From Candidatus Berkelbacteria bacterium CG06_land_8_20_14_3_00_43_10 (GTDB lineage Bacteria; Patescibacteriota; UBA1384; GWA2-35-9; CG2-30-43-20): 38,835 nt of DNA. Position 1 is the first letter of the stretch, and every line of letters begins with the position of its first letter. Of this stretch, positions 15,526 to 38,762 are shown one piece after another. The translations under genes were made by a program, and so were the position numbers. The stretch spans positions 305 through 39,139 of the forward strand of contig PEVO01000025.1 of assembly GCA_002780235.1 (NCBI GenBank). The letters are read 5' to 3'. The notes beneath the pieces are model-generated. The model made no database searches, had not been told where the DNA came from, and saw only the letters and a list, made by a program, of their open reading frames with translations.

Positions 15526-15533
15526 ACAATAAT

Positions 15534-16182: not shown

Positions 16183-16212
16183 TCGCTCTACGCACACTGT
16201 ATTAACAGAGCA

Positions 16213-16250: not shown

Positions 16251-16257
16251 AACGATT

Positions 16258-16689: not shown

Positions 16690-16927
16690 ACTTTTCGTCG
16701 TACATTTCTTGTCTTATTACATCCAAATCCGCAAGCATCTCATCAATGGGGTAGGGTTTGTTTTTGGTAATGTTTTGAGCTTCTTTGACTAATGATTTAT
16801 ATTTCGACAACACAAAACTATTACCAACCTGCGACAAGCTGATCTTACTTCCTTTGCGTAAATTTAAACTCTTCCGCACCGTTGACGGTAATGTAATCTG
16901 CCCCCGGTCTCGCATTTGTATATTCAT
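16676..16927 (-). CDS. vapB: AbrB/SpoVT-type antitoxin (VapB-like), module 1
   Basis: 83 aa with the swapped-hairpin motif RGQITLPSTVRKSLNLRKGSKISL. Confidence 0.75.
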   Translation of the reverse strand: MNIQMRDRGQITLPSTVRKSLNLRKGSKISLSQVGNSFVLSKYKSLVKEAQNITKNKPYPIDEMLADLDVIRQEMYDEKYGHK

Positions 16928-16946
16928 ATTATTATACCTTATAATC

Positions 16947-16975
16947 AGAATAAATCAGAAAATTCTATTTGTCAA
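16947..16975 (-). promoter_or_regulatory. vapBC-1 promoter
   Basis: On the minus strand: TTGACA (16975-70), 17-nt spacer, TATTCT (16952-47). TTCTGAT direct repeats overlap it. Confidence 0.4.
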
Positions 16976-17059
16976 CCCAATCTATCTTTTGATCGCATCC
17001 GGTTAGTGTAATTAGTAATTAGGTCAATTAGAAATTTCTCCCCCTGCTCCTTTCCACGC
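16968..17059. repeat. 92-nt duplicated segment (copy 1 of 2)
   Basis: Nearly identical to 19311..19401 (a few substitutions, 1 indel). Spans the 3' end of trmB-2 (..AWKGAGGEISN*) plus the downstream vapB -35 region. Confidence 0.85.
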
Positions 17060-17794
17060 ACTCCGAAACCCACATCGTTCTAGTTCGGCTATAGCGTGGG
17101 ATTCGACCACAACCATACTTGAGTTATTTTCGTCAATAGTCAACGAACAAACTTGATCGCGCCAGATCCATTTTTCAGCGTTGGTATTCCAGCCATTTTC
17201 AATAAAGCGATGGTCTCGTTTTTCTGAACCAATTGAGCTTTGATATTTTCTAGCATCAGGAGTATCGGGCAATAATATTGTTGATTTTATTTCATTGTCG
17301 TCAGAAAATTTTAAGAATTTATCGTAGAATTCTTTGTCCAAATCATACCAGTGGTTTTTATTTCCGGAAGACCAGATCAAAAGTTCCTCACCTTTCTTGG
17401 CGGTTTGCATAAATATTCGATACCATTCTCGCATACTGATTAGATTTTCGTAGATAGTGATGGTTGGAATTGATATCAGATCCGCCCGTTTGCTTTGCAA
17501 CTCGGGCAAGACCTTTTTCAACTCTCTGGTATTTGATCGGGCAATGTCAACTAGAATATTCGGATCGACAGCATGGAACAAACGATGAGTACCGATTTTT
17601 ACCTGTTTGATTAGACCTTTTTCAATTAGGATTGGCAAGAGAGTGTAGACCATCTGTCTAGTAACGCCGATTTTGCGCCCGATCAAAATCGCTGAAGCGG
17701 GACCGATCAGCAGGCAGGTTAAATATAATTTTGCTTCGGTTGTGCCGTAGCCGAGCTGTGTAAATAATTTAATATAGCGTTCTTGGCTTTTCAT
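17024..17794 (-). CDS. TrmB-family transcriptional regulator (module 2)
   Basis: wHTH TEAKLYLTCLLIGPASAILIGRKIGVTRQMVYTLLPILIEKGLI. The ATG at 17794 is preferred over the in-frame TTG at 17803. Confidence 0.75.
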   Translation of the reverse strand: MKSQERYIKLFTQLGYGTTEAKLYLTCLLIGPASAILIGRKIGVTRQMVYTLLPILIEKGLIKQVKIGTHRLFHAVDPNILVDIARSNTRELKKVLPELQSKRADLISIPTITIYENLISMREWYRIFMQTAKKGEELLIWSSGNKNHWYDLDKEFYDKFLKFSDDNEIKSTILLPDTPDARKYQSSIGSEKRDHRFIENGWNTNAEKWIWRDQVCSLTIDENNSSMVVVESHAIAELERCGFRSAWKGAGGEISN

Positions 17795-17829
17795 ATGTGA
17801 CAAATAATCATTTTACATTATATATGGGT

Positions 17830-17907
17830 ATCATATCAAATATAGAGTATAAAGTCAACAATAGAGACAAGCAAACACTTGACAAACATATACTTTTGTG
17901 CTATACT
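17830..17907. promoter_or_regulatory. back-to-back divergent promoters (module 2)
   Basis: Plus strand: TTGACA 17879-84, 17-nt spacer, TGcTATACT 17902-07, identical over ~30 nt to module 1. Minus strand: TTGACT (17858-53), 17-nt spacer, TATGAT (17835-30). Confidence 0.55.
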
Positions 17908-18038
17908 ACGGTTGTTATTGAAGATTGAAAATCGAAAATCCGCCGTAGCATCTTGAATGAAACATGGATGAATAATCCAAGTGAAATATCAAGAGCGAAG
18001 GAGGACGATCGAAATTCAACTGAAGATAACGCAGATTG

Positions 18039-18099
18039 ACAATTTGAACCCTCGGAAACTTTACCAAATGGAAAGCAACAAAAGGGTTTGGAGAAAGAA
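18039..18099 (+). promoter_or_regulatory. conserved SD-sequestering leader helix (copy 2)
   Basis: CAATTTGAACCCT-N31-AGGGTTTGGAGAAAGAA-ATG. Confidence 0.45.
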
Positions 18100-18543
18100 A
18101 TGATTACAATTATTGTGCTTTGGGGCGTAGTTATACTGCTGACAGCGTTAACAATAACGCTGTCAGGCCAGGAAAATATTCTTGCGCTGGGAATAGTCGT
18201 ATTCCCCCTAATAGGGTGGGCGATAACGAACGACCAGGTAACCCCCCAGCCGGAATATGGGGATAATTTTGAGACTACAAGAAATGTTTCCACCGTTAGG
18301 TGGGACGACATACCGAAAGGTATGTATAAGAAGCTAGGTAAGTTCTACTTGAACTTACCGTCCGGAAAGGCAAAAGTCGTCCGAAAGTTAGACGACTTCG
18401 TGACGGTCAAGGTTGTAGTTTCCCCTCGTGGAGAGAAAAAACTAGCGACGGTTCAAACCGCCAAAAACGAAACGGGCTCGTGGTGGGTCTGGGACCCCTC
18501 GAAAGAGGGGTATAGGGAAGGGCATCTGGAACCTGAAAAATAA
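18100..18543 (+). CDS. small membrane protein smp2 (variable cargo, module 2)
   Basis: 147 aa from ATG 18100, with GGAG 6 nt upstream. Two N-terminal TM helices plus a ~95-aa soluble domain. No similarity to smp1 or smp3. Confidence 0.6.
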   Translation: MITIIVLWGVVILLTALTITLSGQENILALGIVVFPLIGWAITNDQVTPQPEYGDNFETTRNVSTVRWDDIPKGMYKKLGKFYLNLPSGKAKVVRKLDDFVTVKVVVSPRGEKKLATVQTAKNETGSWWVWDPSKEGYREGHLEPEK

Positions 18544-18563
18544 CCTGCGGTTTTGTACCGCAC

Positions 18564-18604
18564 CCCCGCTTGAGTGCAAACTTGAGCGGGGTTTTTCTTT
18601 TGCC
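18564..18604 (+). terminator. intrinsic terminator (module 2)
   Basis: CCCCGCTTGAG-TGCAAA-CTTGAGCGGGG followed by TTTTTCTTTTGCC. A small hairpin TGCGGT-TTTGT-ACCGCA precedes it. Confidence 0.65.
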
Positions 18605-19027
18605 TTATTTTCTTGCCTTCAGTTTTGCGTAGAGTTTGATAAGTTTACTGTCAGACGAAGCAAAGTCGGCGCATTTGTTGTCTATCGCCTCGAGAATAAT
18701 GAGGCAGTCTACTAAACTTACTTGAGGTGTCTCTTTGTAAAGCAAGATCGCGTTTAATATGCGGTTTTTATCTGGCACTTCACAACAGGGTAGCTCCAAA
18801 ATTGCGGATATTCTATCGATGATTATCGCTTTTTCTATTTTGTAATAACTTTTCAGCGTCCACGCGAATTCAAAAATAACGAGTATGGGGATATAGAGAT
18901 TATACATACCGCTCGCAGATTGCGTTATTAACCGTTCCGCTTGATCGTATTTTTCTCGGTGTAGAAAGAAATCGAGGAGAATATTTATATCGATTGCGAT
19001 GGTTTTCATATCGTCACTCGTTGGCAA
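18605..19027 (-). CDS. vapC: PIN-domain toxin (VapC-like), module 2
   Basis: 140 aa with IAIDINILLDFF and VDCLIILEA. A different PIN subfamily from modules 1 and 3. The start may be the ATG at 19009. Confidence 0.75.
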   Translation of the reverse strand: MPTSDDMKTIAIDINILLDFFLHREKYDQAERLITQSASGMYNLYIPILVIFEFAWTLKSYYKIEKAIIIDRISAILELPCCEVPDKNRILNAILLYKETPQVSLVDCLIILEAIDNKCADFASSDSKLIKLYAKLKARK

Positions 19028-19271
19028 TTTCTATTGCCCTTAGTTCGAACGCTTTTTCGATAGCAATATCTGTCTGTGTGCCATCATCGTACTGTTTAAG
19101 AGAGCCGGCAAGATCGAGTATTCTCGGTCTAGTCTTTGGTCGGGCGGTAAACCCATTTTGTGAATAGATTATTTGAAATTTAGTACCTTTTTGTACCGCC
19201 AACCGATCCCGAATTGGTTTTGGGATGGTAAATTGCCCCTTAGAGGTGAGAGTGGTTGTATATGTTTTCAT
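19014..19271 (-). CDS. vapB: AbrB/MazE-type antitoxin (VapB-like), module 2
   Basis: 85 aa with SKGQFTIPKPIRDRLAVQKGTKF. Upstream: TTGACA, 17-nt spacer, TATTGT, and an AAGGA SD. Confidence 0.7.
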   Translation of the reverse strand: MKTYTTTLTSKGQFTIPKPIRDRLAVQKGTKFQIIYSQNGFTARPKTRPRILDLAGSLKQYDDGTQTDIAIEKAFELRAIEIANE

Positions 19272-19310
19272 TGCATTCCTTACATATATACAATAAATCC
19301 TTACTTATAC

Positions 19311-19401
19311 TTTGTCAACCCAATCTATCTTTTGATCGCATCCGGTTAGTGTATTAGTGATTAGGTCAATTAGAAATTTCTCCCCCTGCTCCTTTCCACG
19401 C
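19311..19401. repeat. 92-nt duplicated segment (copy 2 of 2)
   Basis: Near-identical to 16968..17059. Confidence 0.85.
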
Positions 19402-19541
19402 CAGTTCGAAGATAGAACGCTGTCCATTAGCGATGCTCTCGGACTCTATTACAACTGCCACCAGCTCATCTTCGAGCGAAATAATTGCTACTTTATTGCG
19501 ATAGATATTGATCTCGTTGGTAAATGGGTAGATTTTGGGTC
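19366..19541 (-). pseudogene. 3' remnant of a TrmB-family regulator
   Basis: Encodes ..KIYPFTNEINIYRNKVAIISLEDELVAVVIESESIANGQRSIFELAWKGAGGEISN*, which matches the last ~55 residues of trmB-3. The wHTH, promoter and start are missing. Confidence 0.75.
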
Positions 19542-19620
19542 TGGGACCAAAAAAAGGGAGATTATCGAACCGGCCATTGCCGGTAGATGACCCCCACCCA
19601 ACCCGCGGCTTATGCCACAA

Positions 19621-19656
19621 CCCCGCTTGAGTGCGAACTTGAGCGGGGTTTTTTAT
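19621..19656 (+). terminator. orphan copy of the module terminator
   Basis: CCCCGCTTGAG-TGCGAA-CTTGAGCGGGG followed by TTTTTT, with no intact upstream gene. Confidence 0.55.
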
Positions 19657-19698
19657 TTATCGTAAAAACTGTTCGAGAATATATGTTACAATGAATCT

Positions 19699-20229
19699 AT
19701 GGGATTAAAACAAAAGATAAATAATTATGCCTACATAGATAGCCAAAACCTTAATTTAGGAGTACAGAGTTTAGGCTGGAAACTGGATTTCAAAAAGTTT
19801 TGAGTATATTTAACGGAAAAATATCAGGTAAAAATCGCATATCTTTTTATCGGTTATCTTGCTGAAAACCAGGATCTGTATAGTTCGCTTTAAAAAAGCG
19901 GTTATATATTAAAATTTAAACCAGTTTTGCCCGCCAAAGATGGTCAACACAAAGGGAATGTTGATGCTGATATGGTCTTGCAGATTGCCATAGACCACTT
20001 CGAACACCATTTTGATAAAGCGGTAGTTGTCACGAGCGATGGAGATTTTTATTCGGTTGTTAAGTTTTTGTATGGAAAAAAGAAATTAGAAAAAGTAATC
20101 AGTCCTTACTATAAAACATGTTCTTCTCTACTAAAAAGAACAGCCAAAGACAAACTGGTATTTATTAATAATATAAAGAATAAATTAGAATATAAAAAAG
20201 AAAAACACCGCACAAGGACGAAACCTTAA
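19699..20229 (+). pseudogene. NYN/LabA-like domain gene with two in-frame stops
   Basis: One frame reads MGLKQKINNYAYIDSQNLNLGVQSLGWKLDFKKF*VYLTEKYQVKIAYLFIGYLAENQDLYSSL*KSGY..GNVDADMV..VVTSDGDF. TGA lies at 19801-03 and TAA at 19891-93. Confidence 0.7.
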
Positions 20230-20276
20230 GAGGTGTTTTTCACTATAGATTCTGACTAAATTATATCAAAACAATA

Positions 20277-21026
20277 CTATTTGTCAACCCCCGCCCCTTT
20301 CCATGCCAACTCGAAGATGGCGCGGAGGGTTTTGGCGACGGACTCGGATTCGATGATAACCGACAACAGTTCTCCTTGGAGCGACATTATTGCCACTTTA
20401 TTTTCATAAATATCTATTTCATTGGTAAACGGGTATAGTTTTGGGTCAACTAAACGAGTTTCGCGGAGTTGTTCTTGGTCGTGCTTAACGAATTCTCGGT
20501 TAATATCTAAATCGGGCCCAATCGCTTTGACGGTAATGCCTTTCTTGATTCTCCTTCTCAAGTAGGAATTGATGAAAGATTGATCCTGCGAGTAATACCC
20601 CTGCGCAGTTGCAAACGCCAGAATGGTGCCATTTTGGGGTTGTTTTAAGGTGTCCTCGAGGGCAATCTGGATTCCTGATGCTCCCTCGAAAAATTGGACT
20701 CTCGGTTTATCACCAATAGTTTTAACCAGGGCTTTAATTTCTGGGATAACTGATTCTAACCGGTTGATCTTTTCCTCCTGTAATGCCTTGAACTTATCGA
20801 TCGAGATAGAACTGTAGTGGAGGGTTCCGCGGATCTCGACTTCGGAGAGTAAGCCATTTTCAACCATATTTTTAACCAGATCGTAGATAAACGTTCTCTG
20901 AACTCCCGATTCTCGGGCGATATCACTGACTGTTGCTTGACCTAATTTAAGACAAGCAAGGTAGATTTGTGCTTCCTGTGACTTGATACCAAATTGTGAG
21001 AGAATTGTTAAATAATTGTTTTCCAT
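20277..21026 (-). CDS. TrmB-family transcriptional regulator (module 3)
   Basis: 249 aa with wHTH SQEAQIYLACLKLGQATVSDIARESGVQRTFIYDLVKNMVENGLL. Confidence 0.8.
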   Translation of the reverse strand: MENNYLTILSQFGIKSQEAQIYLACLKLGQATVSDIARESGVQRTFIYDLVKNMVENGLLSEVEIRGTLHYSSISIDKFKALQEEKINRLESVIPEIKALVKTIGDKPRVQFFEGASGIQIALEDTLKQPQNGTILAFATAQGYYSQDQSFINSYLRRRIKKGITVKAIGPDLDINREFVKHDQEQLRETRLVDPKLYPFTNEIDIYENKVAIMSLQGELLSVIIESESVAKTLRAIFELAWKGAGVDK

Positions 21027-21033
21027 AGCTTAT

Positions 21034-21120
21034 ATTGTATCAAAAAAATGACAAAAAGTCAATAGCAAGTAGGAAAAAGCGTATCAAACACTTGACAAAA
21101 GTATATTTTTATGCTATAAT
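21034..21120. promoter_or_regulatory. back-to-back divergent promoters (module 3)
   Basis: Plus strand: TTGACA 21092-97, 17-nt spacer, TGcTATAAT 21115-20. Minus strand: TTGACT (21062-57), 17-nt spacer, TACAAT (21039-34), then 7 nt to ATG 21026. Confidence 0.55.
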
Positions 21121-21171
21121 ATACTCATCAAACTGGAAATTTGAAAGAATTGAAAGGGAGACGCAAGTTGA

Positions 21172-22453: not shown

Positions 22454-24197
22454 CTAAACCCACCGGCTTGGATCTGCCAGAGTTTTTGGTAGGTGCCTTT
22501 GTGGAGTTTTAATAACATCTCGTGCGTTCCTTCTTCTACGATTGTGCCTTTTTCTAGAACGACAATTCTATCCATCTGTTTGATGGTCGATAAACGGTGG
22601 GCGATGACGATGACGGTCTTGTCTTTAATAAGCGTTTTAAGCGCATCTTGGATGTAACGTTCCGATTGGCTGTCGAGTTGGCTGGTCGCCTCATCAAGAA
22701 TAAGAATCGGTGCATTTTTAAGGATAGCCCGGGCGATCGCCACCCGTTGGCGATCGCCACCAGAAAGCTTGATCCCCCGTTCGCCGACTAACGTATCATA
22801 CCCTTGTGGTAGGTTTTTAATAAACTCGTGGGCATGGGCGAGCGTGGCAGCTTTTTTTACTTCGTCATCGGTGGCGTTTTGTTTGGCATAACGGATATTT
22901 TACATAATACTGCGGTGAAAGAGCAACGCTTCTTGCGGGACGTAGGCGATGGCGCCACGCACACTATCTTGTGTGACCGTTGCAATATTCTGATTATCTA
23001 TGGTAATCTGCCCGCCGTGGACATCAAAAAACGCAACAACAATTTGACAAGCGTCGTTTTGCCCGACCCGGAACTGCCGATCAGTGCCAACCGTTCTTTG
23101 CTCGCAATTTTCAGATTAAATTGTTTGAATATTTTATCGGCATGATATCCAAAAGTCACATCGTTAAATGTTACCGCACCGTTTGATAGTGTAATACTTT
23201 TGGCGTTTGGTGCATCTTGAACTTCATACGGCGTCGTCAGAATATCGGTCATTTCGTTGGCGCTCCCCAAACTATCATAGATACTGCGCATATTGGAAGA
23301 AACGTTCCTTAACCGTTCAAACAACTGCATAATCAAACCTTGGATAAGGGCAAAATCACCGATGGTCAGTGTGCCTTGCCTCCAGAGTACAACGGCGAGC
23401 GCCATCATCCCTACCTCGAGTACCATGGTGAAAAAGTTGACATACGATTCTATGTCGCGGTCAAATAACCATGCTTTGAGTTGGAATCCATATTGTGTCG
23501 AAATCTTTTTCTGATAGAGGGCTTCCTCTGTTGTATATCCGTTAAATATTTTGAGGTTGAGGTTGTTGGCAGTCGTGTCGGCAAGGTGTGCACCGGCGAT
23601 GCTATCGGCGGCGGACTTCTGCAGATCAATTTTCTGACGTTTTTTTGCTGTCGAAAAAGAAAATATCAGATAGATAACGGTCCAGAGTACAAGCGCACCA
23701 ACTAGAGTTAGGTTTCGCAGGCCAAGCGCGATGATAATGAACACGTATCGGATGATACTTTCGGCGATACGCCACGTTGCTTGGTTGGAAAGATCTTCGT
23801 ACGCCCTGATAAATCAGTCGACTTTTTTGGTCAGTGCTCCGCTAAAATTATTCGTAAAAAAGGTATAGGAGTGTTTGTGCAGGTAAGAAAAACAATACGA
23901 AGCAAGGTCTGACATTGTTTTTGTTTGGAATATAATGTTACTCGTCATCGCAGCCCGAGACGTAACCCAGATAATTGCATTGACACCAGCAAAAATGGTT
24001 AGGGTTCGATAAATGATTGGGAGGGTTGTGAAGTCGTTGGCGGCTAGACTGTCGAAGATGTTTTTGTATAAAAATGGGATATACACATACAGTGCGTTGA
24101 CGATGAGAGTAGAAATAATCGATACAAAAACAAGCAGGCGATATTTTTTTGTAAACCGCCAATAAATCGAAATCGTTTGTTTCGATAGATTTTTCAT
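22450..24197 (-). pseudogene. ABC exporter (fused TMD-NBD, MsbA-like), disrupted three times
   Basis: The TMD spans 24197-23817 and continues in the same frame after an in-frame TGA at 23816-14. Walker A is GSSGSGKTT. A frameshift falls at the A6/T6 run 23026-31, and an in-frame TAA at 22902-00 reads SIM*NIRY. The [14 protein letters not shown] signature and ILILDEATS Walker B follow. Confidence 0.8.
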
Positions 24198-24360: not shown

Positions 24361-24364
24361 TCTC

Positions 24365-24413
24365 TTGACAAAACAATAATAACATGTTACCATATAATTA
24401 ACAATAATGTTAA
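24365..24413 (+). promoter_or_regulatory. AbiE operon control region with two palindromes
   Basis: Contains TTGACA 24365-70, palindrome TAACATGTTA 24380-89, TATAAT 24393-98 and palindrome TTAACA-ATAA-TGTTAA 24398-24413. The -35/-10 spacing is not canonical. Confidence 0.4.
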
Positions 24414-24425: not shown

Positions 24426-25100
24426 ATGATAAAAGACATTGCAGAAAAGTTATCTCGAGAATTGCGCATTAGTTTGGATAAAGTTGTCAGGGAAGAATGG
24501 GAAATGAAAGTTCTGGAAAAAATATCCCAGAGCGTAATTGGTGATAAGATAATGTTTAAGGGTGGAACCGCCTTGCGTTTAGCCTATAACTCCCCTCGAT
24601 TTTCTGATGATCTAGATTTTTCTCCACTTTCTAAAATTGCATTCGCTGACTACAAAACGGTTATTAAAAGCATCGAAAAGGCGTTTCCCGAAATTGTTAT
24701 CTCCGATATATACAACAAGTACTATACCTATTTATCTGAATATAAAATTACGGATCCGCTTTTGTCTCAAAACATTACTCTGAAAATTGAACTCTCCAAA
24801 AGAAAAAGCCAATACAAATCGTCCTTGCGTTTAATTAGCTCCCCATCATCAAACTTGCAACCATTATTTCAGGTCGAAGAAATCGATGAAATTTTGAAGG
24901 ACAAACTAAAAACAATACAAGAGCGCAAACTGCCTCGCGATTTGTTTGATATTTGGTTTTTGTGCCAAAAACTTCGTTTACCGATGCCAGATATTACCTT
25001 GAAGATCGATAAAAAATTGATTCGGCAGGAACTTTCTAAATATTTGCCCAAAAACTATCAAACGGTTACCACGCAACTTATGGAGAAGTATGGCAAATAA
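24426..25100 (+). CDS. abiEii: AbiEii/AbiGii-family nucleotidyltransferase toxin
   Basis: 224 aa with MFKGGTALRLAYNSPRFSDDLDFS and RDLFDIWFL motifs. GGAG SD. Confidence 0.8.
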   Translation: MIKDIAEKLSRELRISLDKVVREEWEMKVLEKISQSVIGDKIMFKGGTALRLAYNSPRFSDDLDFSPLSKIAFADYKTVIKSIEKAFPEIVISDIYNKYYTYLSEYKITDPLLSQNITLKIELSKRKSQYKSSLRLISSPSSNLQPLFQVEEIDEILKDKLKTIQERKLPRDLFDIWFLCQKLRLPMPDITLKIDKKLIRQELSKYLPKNYQTVTTQLMEKYGK

Positions 25101-25674
25101 CAGATTAAAAGTCCTTGGTACTCTTGATAAAGATTACTTTTCATCGTCTGATTTGCAAAAGATTTTTAAATTACCACGCGCAAGTTTACTAGTGACTTTA
25201 TCGCGTCTGCAAAAACGAGGAGAAATAAAGCGGATTATTAAAGGATATTATCAAGTAGCCGATAAACCAATTAATACTCAAAAGATAGCGACACAGATAT
25301 ATCAACCGAGTTATATTTCTTTTGAAAGCGCGCTGTCGCGCTACGGGGGGATAAGCCAAGTACCTTATTGTTTGACGCTGGCAACCACCAATAAACCAAA
25401 AAAAATAGTTCTCGACAAGGAAGATATTGAGTACCGCAAAATTAAGCAGGATTTACTCTTTGGATTTAACCTTATCGACGGCGTGTATGTGGCGACAGCG
25501 GAAAAAGCTCTGCTCGATACATTGTATATGGTGTCAAAAGGGAGATTGCAAATTGACTTGACCGTTATTGACAAAAAAGTATTTGACAAAATAAAGTTGT
25601 TACTCTGGTCCAAACAGTATCCACCAGCGGTTTTGCGTCTTATTAATAGTTTATATCAAGAACGAACCGATTAA
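25090..25674 (+). CDS. abiEi: AbiEi-family antitoxin / transcriptional regulator
   Basis: 194 aa with an N-terminal wHTH (FSSSDLQKIF..LVTLSRLQKRGEIKRIIKGYY) and PSYISFESALSRYGGISQVP, typical of AbiEi. Overlaps abiEii by 11 nt. Confidence 0.75.
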   Translation: MANNRLKVLGTLDKDYFSSSDLQKIFKLPRASLLVTLSRLQKRGEIKRIIKGYYQVADKPINTQKIATQIYQPSYISFESALSRYGGISQVPYCLTLATTNKPKKIVLDKEDIEYRKIKQDLLFGFNLIDGVYVATAEKALLDTLYMVSKGRLQIDLTVIDKKVFDKIKLLLWSKQYPPAVLRLINSLYQERTD

Positions 25675-28533: not shown

Positions 28534-28614
28534 TCCCATACTACCTAATCCCATACTACCTAATACCTACTACCTAATACCTACTACCTAATACCTAATA
28601 CCTACTACCTAATA
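28534..28614. repeat. TACCTAATACC / CTACTACC tandem repeat array
   Basis: Reads CCCATACTACCTAAT x2, then (ACCTACTACCTAAT/ACCTAAT)n. Located between rpsO and the pilin-like gene. Confidence 0.8.
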
Positions 28615-28620
28615 CAGGTT

Positions 28621-29118
28621 TTACTTTCTCAGCCCCAAATCTGCTATCAACTTCTGATACTGTGCTTGGTTGTGCTTCAATAGATAATTTAACAGGCGTC
28701 GTCGTTTACCTACCATGATGATCAACCCGCGTTTGGAATCACTGTCTTTGCCGTGTTTTTTGAGGTGTTTTGCAAGCGAATTGATCTTTGCCGTAAACAG
28801 TGCAACTTGCACTTCTGTGGAACCGGTATCGGATGTATTATGCTGATACTTGGTCAAAAGTTCCGCATCTTTGCCTTTGAGTTTAAATGTACCGACCGAC
28901 GCAGTTGGCTTGGCGACTTTTTTCTTTTTTCCAAGTGTTTGAACCACGGGCTTCTCTACTGCATTCTCTTTTTTAAGCACTTCAGCACTTTTCTTTTCTT
29001 TTTTAACAACCTTAACAGGAGCGACTAGCGATTTTGTCGCTTTTTTCACAGGAGTTTTCTCTTTCTTCAGCACTTCAGCACTCTTAGTCTTTTTCGTTTC
29101 GGTCTTTTTTATTGTCAT
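28621..29118 (-). CDS. rpsO: 30S ribosomal protein S15 with ~80-aa Lys-rich N-terminal extension
   Basis: The C-terminal half (TSDTGSTEVQVALFTAKINSLAKHLKKHGKDSDSKRGLIIMVGKRRRLLNYL) is canonical S15. The start is set at ATG 29118, 10 nt after the TATACT -10, although the ORF is open to 29157. Confidence 0.85.
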   Translation of the reverse strand: MTIKKTETKKTKSAEVLKKEKTPVKKATKSLVAPVKVVKKEKKSAEVLKKENAVEKPVVQTLGKKKKVAKPTASVGTFKLKGKDAELLTKYQHNTSDTGSTEVQVALFTAKINSLAKHLKKHGKDSDSKRGLIIMVGKRRRLLNYLLKHNQAQYQKLIADLGLRK

Positions 29119-29128
29119 AACAACATAG

Positions 29129-29157
29129 AGTATAGCAAAATATTCTCGTAAGCGCAA
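29129..29157 (-). promoter_or_regulatory. rpsO promoter (near-leaderless)
   Basis: On the minus strand: TTGCGC (29157-52), 17-nt spacer, TGcTATACT (29134-29), then 10 nt to ATG 29118. Confidence 0.4.
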
Positions 29158-34063: not shown

Positions 34064-35118
34064 TTTCGTCGTATATTTTCTAACAATTTAAAGATAGTAT
34101 ACCAGAAAGGTCTCATTTTCAAATCATACGAGCCGAGGCGGGCGATGCTTTTGCCACCAAACTGTTGTTTAAAGCGGGTTAAGTTGGCGAATTTGTGATT
34201 AGGTTGATCGGGCGGGGCGATGGCGAGTAGGTCGTAGGTTTGGCAGTTTTGAGTTTTGGCGTATTTCATAACTTCGTAGTGCAAAAGATAAGGCGCCATG
34301 AGTTCTTTGCGCTCCAAGCTGGACCCGCCGTAGAGATAGCTGGCAACGCCGCCGTGGATTAGTGTTATTGAGCCGGCGAGGGGGGTGGAAGTGATAGATT
34401 GCTTCGTCGCAGTGCTCCTCGCAATGACAGAGGGTGGGACCGCAATGACAGAGGGTGGGCTCGTAGTGGCGGGGGTATAGGCAATGCTTAAAATGATTTC
34501 ATCTTTAAAGTTCTCTAACAGTTTTTCGAAATAACTATAACTGCGTCCGCTGATTGATTTGCGATCGGCGGTTTTTTGATAAAGGTCGTAGACTATTTTG
34601 AGTTTTTCCAACGCAGTAGCATCGTCGCCTGTGGTGATTTCTACCCGGACGCCTTTTTTTTGCGCTAAACGAGTATTGTAACGCCCTTTCTCCTTCATAT
34701 TGTGCAAAATATCCGTTTCGCTTTGGGTAAGGTCGATAATTTGGCGGTGTTCCGGCTGGAGTTCCTCGAACGCTTTGACAAAATGGTTTTCTTTGAGTTT
34801 TTGTTTAATTGCCTCGGCATTTCCGCCGTCAACATTATTAAGAATTTCCAACCGCAGGAACATCGGTTTTTTTTCTTTCGCAAATAAAACTAATTTCTCC
34901 AGTAAACTCGAATCATGTATCATTACTTCCGGCACATACATCATCAACTGGTTAATGTATGGCAACTGGCGCGACAAAACAAAAACATCGCCAACAGTGT
35001 CGGCTTTCCACCCAAACGCACTCTTAAAAGTAGCCCAACTTTGAGTTTGGAGGTATGAGGTTTGCGTTTTACTTTCGTTTTCTAATTCTTTATTCATGGT
35101 TTGACTAGTCTCTGTCAT
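34060..35118 (-). CDS. FemAB-family peptidoglycan interpeptide-bridge aminoacyltransferase
   Basis: 352 aa. YLQTQSWATFKSAFGW, KGRYNTRLAQKKGV and GGVASYLYGGSS.. are typical of the FemX/FemAB family. Confidence 0.75.
   Translation of the reverse strand: MTETSQTMNKELENESKTQTSYLQTQSWATFKSAFGWKADTVGDVFVLSRQLPYINQLMMYVPEVMIHDSSLLEKLVLFAKEKKPMFLRLEILNNVDGGNAEAIKQKLKENHFVKAFEELQPEHRQIIDLTQSETDILHNMKEKGRYNTRLAQKKGVRVEITTGDDATALEKLKIVYDLYQKTADRKSISGRSYSYFEKLLENFKDEIILSIAYTPATTSPPSVIAVPPSVIARSTATKQSITSTPLAGSITLIHGGVASYLYGGSSLERKELMAPYLLHYEVMKYAKTQNCQTYDLLAIAPPDQPNHKFANLTRFKQQFGGKSIARLGSYDLKMRPFWYTIFKLLENIRRK
34387..34470. repeat. repeat element in-frame inside the FemAB-family gene
   Basis: GATTGCTTCGTCGCAGTGCTCCTCGCAATGAC plus the direct repeat CGCAATGACAGAGGGTGGG x2. 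It encodes ATTSPPSVIAVPPSVIARSTATKQSITS. Related words occur at 35290-35335. Confidence 0.65.
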
Positions 35119-35345
35119 CGCGAGGGCTTTAGCCCGTGGCGATCTATTGTATTGATAAATTTACGACTTACGCACTTTAATCGTCATTCTCGAGCCGAAA
35201 GTGGAGCGCTTCGACATCGGGAATCCAAACTATCTAGATTCCGCATCATGTGCAGAATAACAGAAAAGAATATTTTGCGTAAGTCGTAAGATTGCTTCGA
35301 TTCGCTCGCAATGACGGGGTGGGCTCGGCAATGACAATATTTTTA
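35110..35345. repeat. intergenic cluster of small palindromic repeats
   Basis: Contains TGTCATCGCGAGGGCTTTAGCCCGTGGCGATC, GTCATTCTCGAGCCGAAAG.. and GATTGCTTCGATTCGCTCGCAATGACGGGGTGGGCTCGGCAATGACA. These belong to the same families as the intragenic inserts. Confidence 0.65.
35161..35289. mobile_element. MITE-like unit bounded by 14-bp perfect inverted repeats
   Basis: TTACGACTTACGCA (35161-74) pairs with TGCGTAAGTCGTAA (35276-89). The 101-nt interior has no coding capacity. Confidence 0.35.
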
Positions 35346-35421
35346 CGCTTACAATGACGCTAAAGCGATGCAAAGTTGCTTAACCCTTTATCGCGTGACT
35401 TTATTCTATCCGATTTCAGGG

Positions 35422-35455
35422 ATAAAAAAAAGACCGCCCATGAGACATTGGGCGG
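35422..35455 (-). terminator. intrinsic terminator of the small-gene operon
   Basis: The minus strand reads CCGCCCA-ATGTCTCA-TGGGCGG followed by TCTTTTTTTT. Confidence 0.6.
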
Positions 35456-35487
35456 CTTGACAATACAATAATTAGATTAGATGGATG

Positions 35488-36180: not shown

Positions 36181-36444
36181 TCAGTTTCGGTGTCTCTCGA
36201 TAAGTTCCTTGGTGGTGATACCAATCATCGATACATCGCCGCCAGGGACCTCGAGGAAAAGGATACCATCATCATGCTCATTAACACAGGTATGGCAGAT
36301 GCGTGTTTTGAGTATCCTCCCGTGTGAATCAAGAACGACTGGTGCGACAACGGTATTGGTGATATCTTTAGTTTCCGTGCAATAGTTACATGGGTAAACC
36401 GATGAAGTTGGTTGTTGGTAAGCAACCCGAATTCCCTTAAACAT
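36181..36444 (-). CDS. zinc-ribbon small protein (operon gene 1)
   Basis: 87 aa with CNYC and CHTC pairs and an AAGGA-type SD. Confidence 0.55.
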   Translation of the reverse strand: MFKGIRVAYQQPTSSVYPCNYCTETKDITNTVVAPVVLDSHGRILKTRICHTCVNEHDDGILFLEVPGGDVSMIGITTKELIERHRN

Positions 36445-36549
36445 TCGTTTTTTTCCTTGTTAATAATTGCTTCCTCTGGATATTTGGGTTACAATGCCGC
36501 AGATAGACTGAAATAATGATGTTACAGCAAAATTGATAATAAATCACCC

Positions 36550-38052
36550 ATGAAACAAAAAAACTTGCGAATTCTAGCAATTGAGTCAAGTTGCGACGAA
36601 ACTTCGGCGGCAATTATTGAGGGTTCGGATTCTCCGGTTATTAAGTCGAATATCATAGCCAGTCAGATTGATTTGCACAAAATCACCGGCGGGGTGGTGC
36701 CGGAGGTTGCGGCGCGGGCGCACTGCGAAGCGATTATTCCGGTTATCGAGCAATCTCTCGCTCCGCTCGAAATAGAGCTCTTTGGTAAAAAGTCAGACCA
36801 GACGATCCGCAACGTTCTGCCCTACATTGATGCTATCGCCGTAACTGTTGGTCCGGGTTTGGTCGGGTCGCTTTTGGTGGGCGTGGAAACCGCCAAAGCC
36901 CTGGCGTTTGCTGGCGGGAAGCCGCTAATACCAGTGAATCACCTTGAAGGACATATTTTTGCTGCGATGCAGCAAGTATTAAACTCTAAACCCGAAGCTC
37001 TCCTTCGACAAGCTCAGGATGGTGAGCAAAGTCGAACCATAAACTCTAAGCAAACTTCAAACCTCAAAGTACAAAATTCAAAACAGTTTGAAAAATTGGA
37101 TATTTCGAAATTAAATATTGTTTCGAATTTAGAGTTTAGAATTTCGAATTTGTTACCAGCAATTGCATTGCTGGTAAGTGGCGGTCACACAGAACTCGTG
37201 CTTATCAAAGATATGTTTGATTACGAGATTATCGGGCAGACACTCGATGATGCGGCAGGCGAGGCGTTTGATAAAGTAGCAAGTTTGCTGGGGCTGGAAT
37301 ACCCGGGCGGACCGGCTATATCCGCGCTTGCGGAAGAATTTGTGAAAAACTCTAAATCCCAAACTCCCCGCCTGCCATCGACTTGGCATGTCGGGCAGGT
37401 AAACTCTAAACAAATTAAAAGTTTAAAACTTCAAACTTCAAACTTGGAACTTGCTTCGAATTTAGAATTTAGAACTTCGAGTTTTAAGTTGCCTCGACCA
37501 ATGCTAAAAAGTGGTGACCTCAATTTTTCCTTTTCCGGACTTAAAACAGCTGTAGTGAATTTGGTTAAGCAGTTAGAAAGTAATCGAGACGGGATCTCCT
37601 CGCAAACCCACCTCGGAGGTGGAGGAGCGAAGCGGGATCTCCTCCGAGGTGAAAAACAAGCTATCGCCTATGAATTTCAAGAAGCGGTAGCGGAAGTTCT
37701 CGTCGAAAAATCCTATCAGGCATATCAAAAACTATCAACTATGAACTATAAACTTTCAACTATTCTCTTAACCGGCGGAGTGAGTGCCAACAAACGCTTG
37801 CGGCAGTCGTTTAAAGAACGATTTGGTGACAAACTGCTCATCTCGCCGGTAGAGCTCTGTGGTGATAATGCGGGGATGATAGGACTTGCTGCTTTTTATA
37901 GATATAAAAAGCAAATTATAAATAACAAATCCCAAATTTCAAATAAATTTCAAATTCAAAACTCTAAACCCATTCTAAAATCTATAATCTATAATCTAAA
38001 ATCTGCCTTCCCGTGGAAGGCTGTCGATGTTGATCCGAATTTAGAATTATAA
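36550..38052 (+). CDS. tsaD: tRNA N6-adenosine threonylcarbamoyltransferase, with four in-frame insertions
   Basis: ILAIESSCDET, HLEGH, LLVSGGHT, DDAAGEAFDK, GGVSAN and CGDNAGMIG all occur in the right order. It is 500 aa, against about 340 aa for typical TsaD. Confidence 0.9.
   Translation: MKQKNLRILAIESSCDETSAAIIEGSDSPVIKSNIIASQIDLHKITGGVVPEVAARAHCEAIIPVIEQSLAPLEIELFGKKSDQTIRNVLPYIDAIAVTVGPGLVGSLLVGVETAKALAFAGGKPLIPVNHLEGHIFAAMQQVLNSKPEALLRQAQDGEQSRTINSKQTSNLKVQNSKQFEKLDISKLNIVSNLEFRISNLLPAIALLVSGGHTELVLIKDMFDYEIIGQTLDDAAGEAFDKVASLLGLEYPGGPAISALAEEFVKNSKSQTPRLPSTWHVGQVNSKQIKSLKLQTSNLELASNLEFRTSSFKLPRPMLKSGDLNFSFSGLKTAVVNLVKQLESNRDGISSQTHLGGGGAKRDLLRGEKQAIAYEFQEAVAEVLVEKSYQAYQKLSTMNYKLSTILLTGGVSANKRLRQSFKERFGDKLLISPVELCGDNAGMIGLAAFYRYKKQIINNKSQISNKFQIQNSKPILKSIIYNLKSAFPWKAVDVDPNLEL
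36976..37149. repeat. tsaD insert 1 (aa 143-200)
   Basis: AAACTCTAAAC words plus the palindromic unit TTCGAC-N21-GTCGAA (encoding LRQAQDGEQSRT) plus TTTCGAATTTAGAGTTTAGAATTTCGAATTT. It lies between the HLEGH and LLVSGGHT motifs. Confidence 0.7.
37348..37482. repeat. tsaD insert 2 (aa 267-311)
   Basis: Inverted repeat CCTGCC..GGCAGG plus AAACTCTAAAC / CTTCAAACTT / GAATTTAGAA words. Confidence 0.65.
37585..37650. repeat. tsaD insert 3 (aa 346-367)
   Basis: Perfect 11-bp inverted repeat CACCTCGGAGG / CCTCCGAGGTG, with GGGATCTCCTC repeated twice. Confidence 0.65.
37915..38004. repeat. tsaD insert 4 (aa 456-485)
   Basis: Low-complexity AAATTTCAAAT / AAACTCTAAAC / AATCTATAATCTAAAATCT words encoding IINNKSQISNKFQIQNSKPILKSIIYNLKS. 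Confidence 0.6.
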
Positions 38053-38064
38053 AGTTAGGGAACG

Positions 38065-38442
38065 TTACCTGATTGAGATAACTTCGATCGGCAGCTTGAG
38101 TTTTTCCCAGCTACTGTCGGCGGTAAGAATGGGGCATTTTTTACTGATAGCGGTTGCCAAACAGATGCGATCGCCGAGGGATAGGAACATATTTTTGGGA
38201 TGAGTGATTTCTGCTGCGATAAGAGCAATTTCTTTAGAGCAGTCAATCACTTCTAACTTTAAGCTTGATAGTTGAGAGGTAATTTCATCTCCGGGAAAAT
38301 GGTAAAACTTAAATATTATAAGCGTTTCAGCAAGATTTACGCAACTGATGCCGGTCGACTGCTTAAGAAGTCCACCTACCACGGTATCACCTTTTTCGAA
38401 CTTAAAGTATGCGATGAGTGCCGAGGAATCGAGTACAATCAT
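38065..38442 (-). CDS. vapC: PIN-domain toxin (VapC-like)
   Basis: 125 aa with MIVLDSSALIAYF and ILTADSSW. Overlaps the upstream antitoxin gene by 4 nt. Confidence 0.8.
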   Translation of the reverse strand: MIVLDSSALIAYFKFEKGDTVVGGLLKQSTGISCVNLAETLIIFKFYHFPGDEITSQLSSLKLEVIDCSKEIALIAAEITHPKNMFLSLGDRICLATAISKKCPILTADSSWEKLKLPIEVISIR

Positions 38443-38726
38443 ACATAACCTTCCCTTATTGCTTCTTTCTTGCGATCTTCTATTAGTTCCTCGGAAAGCA
38501 TTTTTTCTCCTGGCTTCCAGCGATATTTACTATTTTTTTTTCTAAGATTTTCCCAAGCTTTGAGTTTTTCTTTTTGTTCATCAGCCAGCACAAGCTGATC
38601 ATTTTTGATAAAGATAACAAATCTAACACCCGGTTCTATATTGAGTCGTTTGCGTATCAATGCCGGTATCATCACCCTTCCATTGGGTTCCATTTTTGTT
38701 GTGGCAGATAATGTATGTTTTGTCAT
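38439..38726 (-). CDS. vapB: AbrB/MazE-type antitoxin (VapB-like)
   Basis: Contains NGRVMIPALIRKRLNIEPGVRFVI. The start is set at ATG 38726, directly after the promoter; the ORF is open to 38762. Confidence 0.7.
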   Translation of the reverse strand: MTKHTLSATTKMEPNGRVMIPALIRKRLNIEPGVRFVIFIKNDQLVLADEQKEKLKAWENLRKKNSKYRWKPGEKMLSEELIEDRKKEAIREGYV

Positions 38727-38732
38727 ATTTAT

Positions 38733-38762
38733 AGTATATGACAGAAATATATAATCTGTCAA
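38733..38762 (-). promoter_or_regulatory. vapBC-4 promoter, predicted leaderless, with embedded palindrome
   Basis: On the minus strand: TTGACA, 18-nt spacer, TATACT, then 6 nt to the ATG. TGACAG-N11-CTGTCA spans the -35 and spacer. Confidence 0.45.

Follow-up and report, generated by a model that had tools for sequence, protein, structure and literature searches.

Probable in-frame colonisation of TsaD loops by hairpin-forming dispersed repeats in a groundwater Berkelbacteria genome

The tsaD gene of a groundwater Berkelbacteria member of the CPR encodes a protein of 500 residues where about 340 are usual, which raises the question of what the additional DNA is and how it came to lie inside a conserved enzyme. 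The excess amounts to ~160 residues over compact homologues (+47% on a ~340-aa enzyme), as a sequence-only reading of the 38,835-nucleotide stretch analysed here (hereafter the window) had already estimated. That reading had also seen all TsaD core motifs present and in order, and alignments of 18 and 120 sequences agree: H131, H135, G211, G212 and N440 are invariant in both, and S210, H213, T214, D439 and A441 are invariant in the 18 homologues and at least 90% conserved in the 120. The open reading frame is a bona fide TsaD, a tRNA t6A threonylcarbamoyltransferase of the TsaD/Kae1/Qri7 family, with matches to Pfam PF00814 (E 1e-73, 248.8 bits vs a cut-off of 24.8) and TIGR03723 (329.5 bits vs a cut-off of 296.1). 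Its AlphaFold2 model has a pTM of 0.84 and a core pLDDT above 95, and the two-lobed ASKHA fold is superposable on solved TsaDs in Foldseek (target-normalised TM 0.86 for 8ifx_A and 0.87 for 3zet_B). The core, with a dN/dS of ~0.1 against two relatives at saturated synonymous sites, appears to be under strong purifying selection. Family membership and this low ratio suggest that the protein would take part in t6A synthesis with TsaB/TsaE and be essential, the latter status being carried over by analogy from other bacteria and not from the present organism.

Borders of the inserts were set by phmmer against solved TsaDs, which gave aligned blocks q6-140, q202-264, q312-345 and q368-457. The four blocks of excess sequence marked out by the sequence-only reading stand (Table 1), with borders at 36973 instead of 36976 and at 37342 instead of 37348, but two small extras had been missed, a 12-residue extension and about five residues within a heptamer run. 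The extension is not repeat-like and is modelled with high confidence; the site of the heptamer run carries larger inserts in relatives.

Table 1. Coordinates (window positions) and make-up of the tsaD gene, its inserts and related repeats.
Feature	Position	Strand	Description
Intergenic heptamer hairpin	7984-8078		(AAACTCT)x3.7 ... GTTTAGG GTTTAGA ACTTAGA; family I4; z -6.3, -5.4
dnaX insert	12814-12900	-	29-aa in-frame heptamer hairpin between Cys 1 and Cys 2 of the zinc module; z -2.6
Intergenic tandem array	28539-28620		(TACTACCTAATACC)x5.4; word family of the dnaX insert; adjoins stop codon of ORF 28621-29157
femAB-like gene repeat	34396-34476	-	27 aa in frame, GC-rich TPATTSPPSVIAVPPSVIARSTATKQS, contains 21-mer x1.9
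tsaD CDS	36550-38052	+	500 aa; H131/H135 metal site, SGGHT 210-214 and GDNA 438-441 intact
Lineage-specific 12-aa extension PLEIELFGKKSD	36763-36798	+	End of helix 51-78; two closest relatives without it
Insert 1	36973-37149	+	aa 142-200, 59 aa; composite palindromic element; z -3.2, 0/200 shuffles
GC-rich hairpin nested in insert 1	36991-37041	+	PEALLRQAQDGEQSRTI; stem TTCGAC..GTCGAA; two closest relatives without it
Insert 2	37342-37482	+	aa 265-311, 47 aa; architecture as insert 1; family D1, 75%
Insert 3	37585-37651	+	aa 346-367 (37585-37650), 22 aa; GC-rich hairpin
AACTATC heptamer run	37730-37763	+	4.9 copies; ~5 extra aa at 37741-37755
Insert 4	37915-38004	+	aa 456-485, 30 aa, near C-terminus

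Two classes of repeat make up this DNA: AT-rich heptamer hairpins, and GC-rich hairpins nested within these. Inserts 1, 2 and 4 consist of degenerate 7-bp tandem repeats arranged as hairpins. The outer arms of insert 1 are AAACTCTAAAC (36981-36991) and TTTAGAGTTTAGA (37128-37140), with heptamer runs at 37051-37083 and 37121-37151, and the TTCGAC/GTCGAA palindrome picked out earlier proves to be the stem of its nested hairpin. Insert 2 runs from a left word (37347-37357) through a nested GC hairpin (37366-37399), a second word (37401-37411) and heptamers (37422-37445) to a right arm that starts at 37451 and extends to 37484. Insert 3 contains GGGATCTCCTC twice and an 11-bp inverted repeat, CACCTCGGAGG/CCTCCGAGGTG, which is perfect, as had been described, and whose arms (37609-37619 and 37641-37651) end 1 nt past the block first drawn. 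Insert 4 holds AAATTTCAAAT, TCTAAAA/TCTATAA heptamer runs and one AAACTCTAAAC, and the conserved tail W..VDVDPNLEL is kept downstream of it. All five copies of AAACTCTAAA in tsaD read AAC TCT AAA. The folding signal of insert 1, whose outer arms still pair, is stronger than those of inserts 2 (z -1.5) and 3 (z -1.3). Predicted tryptic peptides that lie inside the inserts or across insert-core junctions include QFEK, LDISK, LNIVSNLEFR, QIK, SLK and LQTSNLELASNLEFR.

The same families of repeat occupy spacers of the window, as the sequence-only reading had noted. Inserts 1 and 2 align, from one end to the other, with a spacer element (7975-8085) whose hairpin adjoins the stop codon of a holA-like ORF and has stops in all frames. 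The window has 14 copies of AAACTCTAAAC with at most one mismatch where 1.1 would be expected, and none of 100 shuffles reached 14; seven of the copies lie in tsaD and four in this intergenic hairpin. Period-7 repeats are a specific feature of the present genome: lag-7 tandem segments number 11 (10 after a unit-complexity filter), with six in spacers, four in tsaD and one in dnaX, whereas the remaining lags between 4 and 12 give 0-1 each and shuffled sequence gives 0.05. Insert 10-mers find ~10 times more matches per kb in intergenic than in coding DNA, and their intergenic match rate is ~20 times that of core tsaD 10-mers, an enrichment dominated within the window by the single spacer locus at 7984-8078. 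For the GC-rich inserts, namely insert 3 and the nested hairpins, the 38-kb window holds no other copy, and it is leuS, just outside it, and the chimeric contigs that support their status as repeats.

In-frame repeats are not peculiar to tsaD but genome-wide, being present also in dnaX, a femAB-like gene, leuS, rsmH and an aaRS gene. Between the dnaX insert and the spacer array at 28539-28620 there is a match with E 7e-7, and the in-frame insert of leuS has words of insert 3 in exact copy (15/15 and 12/12), AAACTCTAAACTCTAAA words recurring there as well. Three short metagenome contigs are chimeric at inserts, with fused gene calls (L208, L209); in these chimaeras the N-terminus of RsmH and an aaRS-like N-terminus are joined to tsaD exactly via the insert-2 element, and the rsmH-side copy has three substitutions of its own. 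Near-identical, same-frame copies of insert 2 must therefore exist in rsmH and in the aaRS gene; the contigs could in principle be real rearrangements, but these too would require that the partner gene contain the element. A single genome thus holds dispersed copies in spacer 7984-8078, in tsaD (three), leuS, rsmH and an aaRS gene. Elsewhere in the window, RNase J has an N-terminal extension of ~100 residues and no internal insert, the ~40 extra residues of a DHH/NrnA-like gene are not repeat-like, and a match at 32172, in an ORF that could be placed in no known family, does not look clearly like an insert. The insert-1 peptide and the RsmH-plus-insert chimaera found no matches as protein queries in a word index ill-suited to short, low-complexity queries. 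A metagenome search with AAACTCTAAACTCTAAA, a 17-mer of too common a composition, returned, among the matches listed, 119 unrelated loci and none from the present organism, with an inverted partner nearby in 7 of 132.

Within the protein, the inserts occupy connections between helices and strands, which are where the family has its chief indel hot spots. Among 120 mostly CPR homologues, each of four sites (s0-s3) is expanded by more than 10 residues in 27-37 proteins; three of these sites hold inserts 1-3, and compact homologues have nothing there. Loop expansion recurs, in these alignments, across the TsaDs of Patescibacteria. The AlphaFold model sets the confident core against low-confidence inserts (pLDDT 45-69 for inserts 1-2, 57 for insert 3 and 73 for insert 4), consistent with loops tolerant of change. 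Although a low pLDDT does not prove disorder, the inserts are predicted to be largely disordered and to lie at the surface, and would probably be harmless to TsaD activity.

In the closest relatives, inserts occupy the same sites with different words, which are found again at other places in the gene concerned and in the leuS of the genome that carries it. Rather than conserved structured domains, which the sequence-only reading had named as the opposite outcome, the inserts are fast-evolving, unconserved and repeat-like. In the set of 120 TsaDs, insert words are common within a protein and not between proteins: across the 36 proteins with two or more expanded sites, inserts of one protein have 0.68 4-mers in common for each pair of sites, whereas permutation gives 0.12 +/- 0.05 (0/2000). 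The use of different words at a common site could be due to the overwriting of ancient inserts, and not to independent insertions. The femAB insert, which is missing from a relative's orthologue, the nested hairpin of insert 1 and the leuS inserts all differ between relatives. In a search of genome contigs with a three-sequence TsaD alignment, the TsaDs among the matches listed were all distant, none exceeding 43% identity. When 10-mers of inserts were compared between a protein's own and other loci only two loci stood out (L087 and L007), in a test left with little power by flank-length normalisation and by AT-rich low complexity.

We therefore favour, at a probability of roughly 80%, the reading that the gene is a working tsaD and that hairpin-forming dispersed repeats of two classes have settled, in frame, in those surface loops of the enzyme that permit insertion. 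The sequence-only reading had proposed repeat elements colonising the loops of TsaD; the present results support it and widen it to the whole genome and to the phylum.

It is unlikely, on the same evidence, that the inserts were made on the spot, by replication slippage in heptamer tracts and by template switches that leave quasi-palindromes, with no movement between loci. Several tracts are indeed simple tandem heptamers (AAACTTC x2.9, TCTAAAA x4.4, AACTATC x4.9), and many lineages expand the same loops; insert 1 is partly orthologous with that of relative P0002 but differs in its heptamer words, as gradual change would give, and the insert-3 and C-terminal arrays of P0002 are not hairpins. 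Against this, the composite of heptamer word, GC hairpin and second heptamer word is near-identical in tsaD, rsmH and an aaRS gene and occurs twice within tsaD itself. The spacer element aligns with inserts 1 and 2 over its full length, the words common to insert 3 and the leuS insert are an exact 15-mer and an exact 12-mer, and inserts 1 and 2 of a further relative, P0003, are roughly 85% identical (84 of 106 aligned positions). Slippage by a single heptamer, moreover, shifts the frame, and cannot alone explain in-frame growth, although slippage probably contributes to later expansion and contraction of the inserts.

There is also little to recommend the view that the inserts are adaptive and were selected as docking or linker segments offsetting missing partners in a reduced CPR proteome, or as mRNA hairpins tuning translation or stability. 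The same sites do keep inserts in diverged relatives, where the arms consist of other words that co-vary and can still form hairpins (z -1.6 to -2.6), and every insert is kept in all strain variants, without presence/absence polymorphism among the full-length members of the 90% cluster. Alignable insert columns give a dN/dS of ~0.5 and not 1, a value that is unreliable, since the alignment of the inserts is uncertain. However, identity to two relatives falls from 80% in the core to 22-37% in the insert peptides, with many indels, and compact homologues of the same phylum do entirely without inserts. Non-coding spacers and unrelated genes hold the same sequences, model confidence in the inserts is low, and hairpin folding is poorer in the coding copies (z -1.5 to -3.2) than in the spacer (z -6.3).

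That the inserts never reach the protein, because they are spliced out as introns or inteins or because the ribosome skips them, is very improbable, even though they are hairpin-forming and missing from most homologues. Inteins and self-splicing introns were rejected: Pfam finds only TsaD-type domains in the protein and no intein or homing-endonuclease domain, the inserts at 22-59 residues are too small for inteins, and no Rfam family matches at gathering thresholds in the window, or at E up to 1 in 36400-38200. Removable elements need no frame, yet the inserts of tsaD, dnaX, femAB and leuS are in frame and stop-free. The tsaD inserts all have lengths divisible by three and no stop in the tsaD frame, whereas the AT-rich ones have 4-5 stops in each of the two other sense frames; none of 20000 shuffles of the 474 insert nucleotides was free of stops. 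Heptamers of the right arms have TCG in place of TAG in 4/4 cases where the triplet is in frame, and keep TAG in 4/4 where it is out of frame; in the spacer copy at 7984-8078, all three heptamers have TAG. The dnaX insert has undergone the same cleaning, with TAA changed to AAA. Selection for an open frame, which the sequence-only reading had deduced, is here seen directly, and since stops have been removed only at in-frame triplets, the tsaD inserts are very probably translated. The in-frame change of TAG to TCG provides a test of translation from sequence alone that is usable on other inserts.

Finally, an assembly artefact or a decaying pseudogene can be virtually discounted, since, although repeats do misassemble in this population (the three short chimeric contigs), the identical full-length 500-aa protein is present with conserved synteny on at least 20 contigs from separate samples, assemblers and archives (NCBI, ENA, JGI), the frame is intact, the catalytic motifs are all conserved and the dN/dS of the core is low. 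The inserts are thus present in independent assemblies, and full-length members of the 90% cluster are all 500 residues long and 99-100% identical. Given this strain-level uniformity and the synonymous saturation against the closest relatives, the insertions into tsaD itself need not be recent.

If loops of a functional TsaD were colonised in this manner, the first class would be AT-rich palindromes with arms of degenerate tandem heptamers (AAACTCT / AGAGTTT type) and the second GC-rich hairpins of 35-65 bp, nested in the first or inserted alone. Both would reside chiefly in intergenic spacers, often adjoining stop codons, and a copy that entered a gene would survive only if its length were a multiple of three, if it were stop-free at once or soon after, and if it fell in a solvent-exposed connection. 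Surviving copies would be transcribed and translated as hydrophilic, largely disordered loops rich in N, S, K and Q, and, with constraint on them relaxed, would then change fast through substitutions, slippage of heptamers and nesting, and probably also through conversion from copy to copy. Copying might proceed by transposition with a trans-acting enzyme, or by gene conversion or template switching between hairpins; the distribution of copies suggests that the repeats are mobile.

Such elements have a counterpart in the RPEs, palindromic dispersed repeats found in frame in Rickettsia genes (Ogata et al., 2000, Science; Ogata et al., 2002, Genome Res; both as summarised in PMC10969869). RPEs resemble the tsaD repeats in being short palindromic sequences present in spacers and in frame in unrelated housekeeping genes of a host-dependent bacterium with a reduced genome; in those genes they add peptide segments at fold-compatible positions, as the tsaD repeats are predicted to do. 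RPEs have a fixed consensus of ~100-150 bp encoding a conserved peptide, whereas here the arms are tandem heptamer arrays. The present repeats differ further in belonging to the phylum Patescibacteria, with no sequence relationship claimed, in having genome-specific words with quick turnover, in the nesting of GC-rich hairpins inside AT-rich elements, and in their density, with four to six inserts in one 340-aa enzyme and the same loops hit in many lineages. Being hairpin-forming, dispersed in spacers and unrelated genes, in frame and open, they are RPE-like by functional class; membership of the Rickettsia sequence families RPE-1 to RPE-10 is not claimed for them, phylum and architecture being different.

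MITEs and REP/REPIN elements are also small, non-coding, hairpin-forming and multi-copy, and mostly intergenic (PMC10969869, PMC3733652, PMC3116915), and like the tsaD repeats they sometimes form in-frame fusions. Of the marks of MITEs, neither target-site duplications nor terminal inverted repeats matched to an insertion sequence were identified here, and Pfam scans of 21 ORFs of the window gave no transposase (Y1/RAYT or other). Terminal repeats could be provided by the inverted heptamer arms, and the direct AAACTCTAAAC words that flank the nested hairpins are equally well explained by insertion into a tandem array. A REP/REPIN system with RAYT is not supported, the three GC-rich hairpins of tsaD being without GTAG or CGTC and the scanned ORFs without a Y1 domain. 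Heterocystous cyanobacteria reportedly carry short tandemly repeated repetitive (STRR) heptanucleotides together with small dispersed repeats, and share with the present genome tandem 7-bp repeats in spacers genome-wide, several heptamer families and hairpins nested in repeats. The phylum differs, however, and the heptamers found here (AAACTCT, TAATACC, TAACTGG, AAAGTAT) are unlike the STRR units, so that this is a resemblance only; STRRs are not known to occur in frame within essential enzymes. Inserts of low complexity in housekeeping proteins of Plasmodium (for example PMC11260460) and the translated coding palindromes of Nematomorpha mitochondrial genes, hairpin DNA inside coding sequences (PMC6649704), resemble the tsaD inserts in being hydrophilic, fast-evolving and unconserved and in lying in loops of conserved enzymes, but these systems are eukaryotic or organellar, and in Plasmodium the inserts do not derive from palindromic repeats that are dispersed through spacers.

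A literature search found no description of in-frame translated palindromic repeats for CPR, and the present case extends this phenomenon, best known from Rickettsia, to these bacteria, with an architecture of heptamer arrays and a heavy load (+47%). It marks out insertion-tolerant loops in TsaD, DnaX, LeuRS and others, and offers one explanation for many CPR proteins of odd length that bear low-complexity segments. There is also a practical hazard, as the repeats yield chimeric metagenome contigs and fused gene calls and cause matches to profiles to be fragmented. More tentatively, and as a possibility we would not presume, an active, hitherto undescribed process of copying and overwriting may operate across Patescibacteria, rewriting the same permissive loops of essential proteins with the hairpin and heptamer repeats of each genome; it might consist of hairpin-targeted transposition or of templated conversion between hairpins. 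If so, unrelated genes of one genome would share insert words that orthologous loops of sister genomes do not, and colonisation by repeats, instead of being a peculiarity of a single gene, would systematically add length and disorder to CPR proteins and give rise to chimeric assemblies.

The long tsaD ORF matched PF00814 (Pfam, E 1e-73) and TIGR03723 (329.5 bits, cut-off 296.1), with each match split into three stretches. In phmmer comparisons its residues q6-140, q202-264, q312-345 and q368-457 aligned to compact TsaDs of solved structure (327-343 aa; best match Aquifex 8iey), and the excess therefore lies in the ranges listed as inserts 1-4 in the table. A sequence-only reading had placed four blocks of repeat words within a few bases of these positions, an observation borne out by profiles, phmmer and repeat counts, and had overlooked two shorter extras of 12 and ~5 aa.

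Features discussed in the text (window numbering unless a contig is named)
Feature	Residues or length	Coordinates	Strand	Remarks
tsaD ORF	500 aa	36550-38052	+	TsaD by every sequence test
Insert 1	aa 142-200	36973-37149		gap between phmmer blocks; past HxxxH helix, ahead of second lobe's first strand
Insert 2	aa 265-311	37342-37482		gap between phmmer blocks; past helix 253-270, ahead of PRPM segment
Insert 3	aa 346-367	37585-37650		gap between phmmer blocks; between helices 329-350 and 366-397
Insert 4	aa 456-485	37915-38004		beyond last phmmer block; past last long helix
Short tsaD extra	12 aa	36763-36798		absent from closest relatives
Short tsaD extra	~5 aa			inside AACTATC heptamer run 37730-37763
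Spacer heptamer hairpin		7984-8078	both	z -6.3 and -5.4; heptamer/octamer array adjoining or overlapping stop codon of ORF 8079-9062(-)
Spacer heptamer hairpin		13098-13170		z -4.1
Heptamer/octamer array		28539-28620		adjoins or overlaps stop codon of ORF 28621-29157(-)
Heptamer/octamer array		10109-10157		adjoins or overlaps stop codon of ORF 10151-11551(-)
dnaX insert	29 aa	12814-12900		between first two cysteines of zinc module
GC-rich repeat in femAB-like gene	27 aa	34396-34476		absent from relative's orthologue
Chimeric gene calls		L208:781-1608, L209:256-1059		RsmH N-terminus (40 aa) in one, aaRS-like in the other
Chimera P0127				unrelated N-terminus, joined to tsaD within insert 1

An AlphaFold2 model computed from a 120-sequence alignment (mean pLDDT 86.5, pTM 0.84) closely resembled solved TsaD structures (target-normalised TM 0.86-0.87). 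All inserts fall between secondary-structure elements, and their pLDDT (45-69 for inserts 1-2, 57 for insert 3, 73 for insert 4) is lower than that of the core (>95). Among the 120 homologues, mostly from the candidate phyla radiation (CPR), each of four hot spots, s0-s3, is expanded by >10 aa in 27-37 proteins; s1-s3 are the sites of inserts 1-3 and s0 that of the 12-aa extension, and the sites are empty in compact homologues of 339-348 aa. Overall identity to the two closest relatives (BLASTP) is 59% for P0002 and 55% for P0003; the core is 80% identical, with saturated synonymous sites and dN/dS ~0.1, against 22-37% identity and dN/dS ~0.5 in alignable insert columns. The enzyme is thus modelled as intact, with the inserts in tolerant loops.

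The word AAACTCTAAAC, singled out in the sequence-only reading, occurs 14 times with at most one mismatch (1.1 expected), and both the perfect 11-bp inverted repeat (37609-37619/37641-37651) and the TTCGAC..GTCGAA stem (within 36991-37041) were recovered. Tandem repeats of 7 bp are in excess in the window, with 11 lag-7 segments (10 after a unit-complexity filter), where shuffles give 0.05 and the remaining lags between 4 and 12 give 0-1 each; spacers hold six of the segments, tsaD has four and dnaX a single one. Inverted heptamer arrays form both hairpin arms in several spacers. Inserts 1 and 2 align with one such spacer element, 7975-8085, over its whole length, sharing a left arm (TAAACTCTAAAC), a central part and a right arm (ACTTnAAACTTGGAnnTTGyTTnGnnTTTAGAnyTTAGA); each insert also carries a nested GC-rich hairpin behind its first heptamer word. 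The outer arms of the whole of insert 1 still pair (z -3.2, 0/200 shuffles), and folding is weaker in the remaining coding copies. Insert 10-mers match spacer DNA ~10x more per kb than coding DNA and ~20x more frequently than do 10-mers of core tsaD, an enrichment that comes mostly from a single locus, 7984-8078.

Two likenesses to core codons were also seen. A 17-nt stretch (CAAACTCCCCGCCTGCC, 37360-37376) within the GC hairpin of insert 2 shows 88% complementarity to core codons 37254-37270, which lie 89 nt upstream and encode the near-invariant AAGEAFD motif; chance is the probable explanation, since the same hairpin occurs in rsmH. At 38030-38048, the codons for DPNLEL (GATCCGAATTTAGAATT), the conserved C-terminal tail, match at 89% identity the repeat right arm TTGyTTCGAATTTAGArTT, which encodes SNLEF at 37118-37136 and 37451-37469; because homologues lacking inserts conserve the tail too, the likeness could be fortuitous or could be a seed for recombination. 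As three arrays adjoin or overlap stop codons of upstream ORFs (table), repeats may supply or displace gene 3' ends; such arrays perhaps act as terminators, and the C-terminal insert of tsaD may be their in-frame version.

Comparison with orthologues showed inserts at the same sites in P0002 and P0003, built of other words that recur within their own gene and genome. Inserts 1 and 2 of P0003 are roughly 85% identical (84/106 aligned positions); AAAAGTGAAAAGTTAAAAGTTAAAAG is shared by insert 3 and the C-terminal insert of P0002, whose own leuS has it in the form QKLKVKSEK. Likewise, QNTNK[LS]QIQN is common to sites 1 and 2 of a 43% identical TsaD (L007), and one ~35-aa peptide is present in three loops of another protein, P0042. 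For the 36 proteins expanded at two or more sites, the number of 4-mers common to inserts of the same protein is 0.68 per site pair, compared with 0.12 +/- 0.05 in permuted sets (0/2000 reach 0.68). Each lineage's own repeats may have been inserted independently into the few survivable loops; alternatively, old inserts may be continually overwritten by conversion with the genome's current repeats. Insert 1 of the window and that of P0002 are at least partly orthologous, with arm words that differ and still pair, which favours some overwriting or arm co-evolution.

The lengths of all four inserts are divisible by three and the gene frame is free of stops, whereas the other two sense frames hold 4-5 stops each in the three AT-rich inserts; no shuffle of the 474-nt insert DNA was stop-free (0/20000). 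The right-arm heptamers cycle through all three frames, so that TAG falls in frame in one unit of three. In the right arms of inserts 1 and 2, TCG stands in 4/4 in-frame units and TAG is kept in 4/4 out-of-frame units; the spacer copy has TAG in 3/3 units. The dnaX insert has CCTAATA changed to CCAAATA in the single unit where TAA would fall in frame. These replacements in two genes agree with the proposal that frame-compatible inserts were selected. Elements removed from RNA or protein would need no such cleaning, and the pattern thus points strongly to inserts that would be read by the ribosome. Searches detected no Rfam family in the window and no intein-type Pfam domain in its TsaD.

An assembly artefact is excluded, as the exact protein (OIP06052.1, Candidatus Berkelbacteria bacterium CG2_30_43_20, CPR) lies in a constant gene neighbourhood on at least 20 contigs from different groundwater samples (NCBI, ENA and JGI assemblies), and full-length members of its 90% cluster are all 500 aa and 99-100% identical, without strain-level presence/absence differences in the inserts.

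Repeats also occur in frame elsewhere. The dnaX insert is a heptamer hairpin (z -2.6) matching spacer array 28539-28620 (E 7e-7), and leuS, just outside the window, carries an in-frame AAACTCTAAACTCTAAA... segment as well as a GC hairpin that shares exact 15/15 and 12/12 words with tsaD insert 3. Three short JGI metagenome contigs are chimeras in which an insert forms the exact junction between tsaD and another gene. In L208 and L209 the frame runs continuously through the insert-2 repeat into the C-terminal two thirds of tsaD, and the rsmH-side copy has three substitutions of its own; judging from these sequences, near-identical same-frame copies must therefore exist in rsmH and an aaRS.

Several further features were noted. 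Between a 5'-3' exonuclease gene and the start of a holA-like ORF, 11.4 copies of a 9-bp unit (ATAAAGTCT-type) stand in tandem at 9024-9120 and extend over the mechanically assigned start of that ORF. The long spacer 35119-35480 abounds in GC-rich words (TTCGCTCGCAATGAC, GGCAATGACA, CAATGACG) that resemble GTCATTGCG, the in-frame repeat of the femAB-like gene, and 36 nt at 35112-35147 recur at 86% identity upstream of rsmH (L208:653-688). On a relative's contig, a 23S rRNA intervening-sequence protein (PF05635, L087:1296-1664) adjoins the femAB-like gene. Three paralogous TrmB-family regulator genes (14779-15525, 17024-17803, 20277-21026), four promoter-like boxes TTGACAAA..N..TGCTATACT/TATAAT (15573, 17872, 21085, 24364), two blocks with 98-100% identity (16968-17059, 19311-19401) and GC hairpin terminators CCCCGCTTGAG..CTTGAGCGGGGTTTTT (18553, 19610, 21590) together mark 14779-21131 and 24364-24404 as a duplicated cassette region. 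Of an ABC transporter, ORF 22998-23744(-) retains just the C-terminal half of the membrane domain and the first 41 ATPase-domain residues, and the adjacent "spacer" 22744-22997 resembles coding sequence; 22744-23744 is likely a truncated or pseudogenised ABC exporter. Two toxin-antitoxin pairs (24426-25674, 38065-38762) comprise AbiEii/AbiEi and, directly downstream of tsaD, a PIN-domain toxin preceded by a small partner. RNase J (777-2756(-)) has a ~100-aa P/T/A/R-rich, not repeat-like N-terminal extension relative to solved RNase J, which could be an artefact of start-codon choice.

The colonisation of tsaD loops by repeats, as first proposed, is supported, and extends to dnaX, the femAB-like gene, leuS, rsmH and an aaRS. 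Dispersed hairpin repeats residing mainly in spacers would be copied to new places, selection sparing only in-frame, stop-free copies in exposed loops; translation of the survivors would give polar, flexible loops, which would afterwards change by drift, slippage, nesting and partial homogenisation. Neither target-site duplications nor a matching insertion sequence were found for the repeats, nor a transposase among the 21 window ORFs scanned, and neither of the REP tags, GTAG and CGTC, is present in the GC hairpins. The heptamer spacer repeats resemble cyanobacterial STRRs. The inserts have their closest counterpart in the Rickettsia palindromic elements (RPEs), described as ~150-bp palindromes in frame in many unrelated genes and predicted to be compatible with protein folds (PMC10969869). 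The window repeats would work alike, but no membership of the RPE sequence families is claimed for them, and they are distinguished by heptamer-array arms, genome-specific words, a nested second repeat class, four to six insertions in one enzyme and repeated use of the same loops across the phylum. Plasmodium low-complexity inserts (PMC11260460) are likewise hydrophilic and in loops, and Nematomorpha coding palindromes (PMC6649704) likewise translated hairpins. No description of such inserts in CPR bacteria was found in the literature covered, which mostly excludes subscription papers, so that "undescribed" is provisional; Patescibacteria go unmentioned in a survey of MITEs across 183,232 genomes.

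The repeats lead to misassembly and have put spurious fusion proteins into public collections, and these practical consequences for metagenome assembly and annotation merit follow-up. A specialist familiar with RPEs would not be astonished; equally worth pursuing are the insert density, the clear signature of stop removal and the phylum-wide occurrence of genome-specific words in shared loops.
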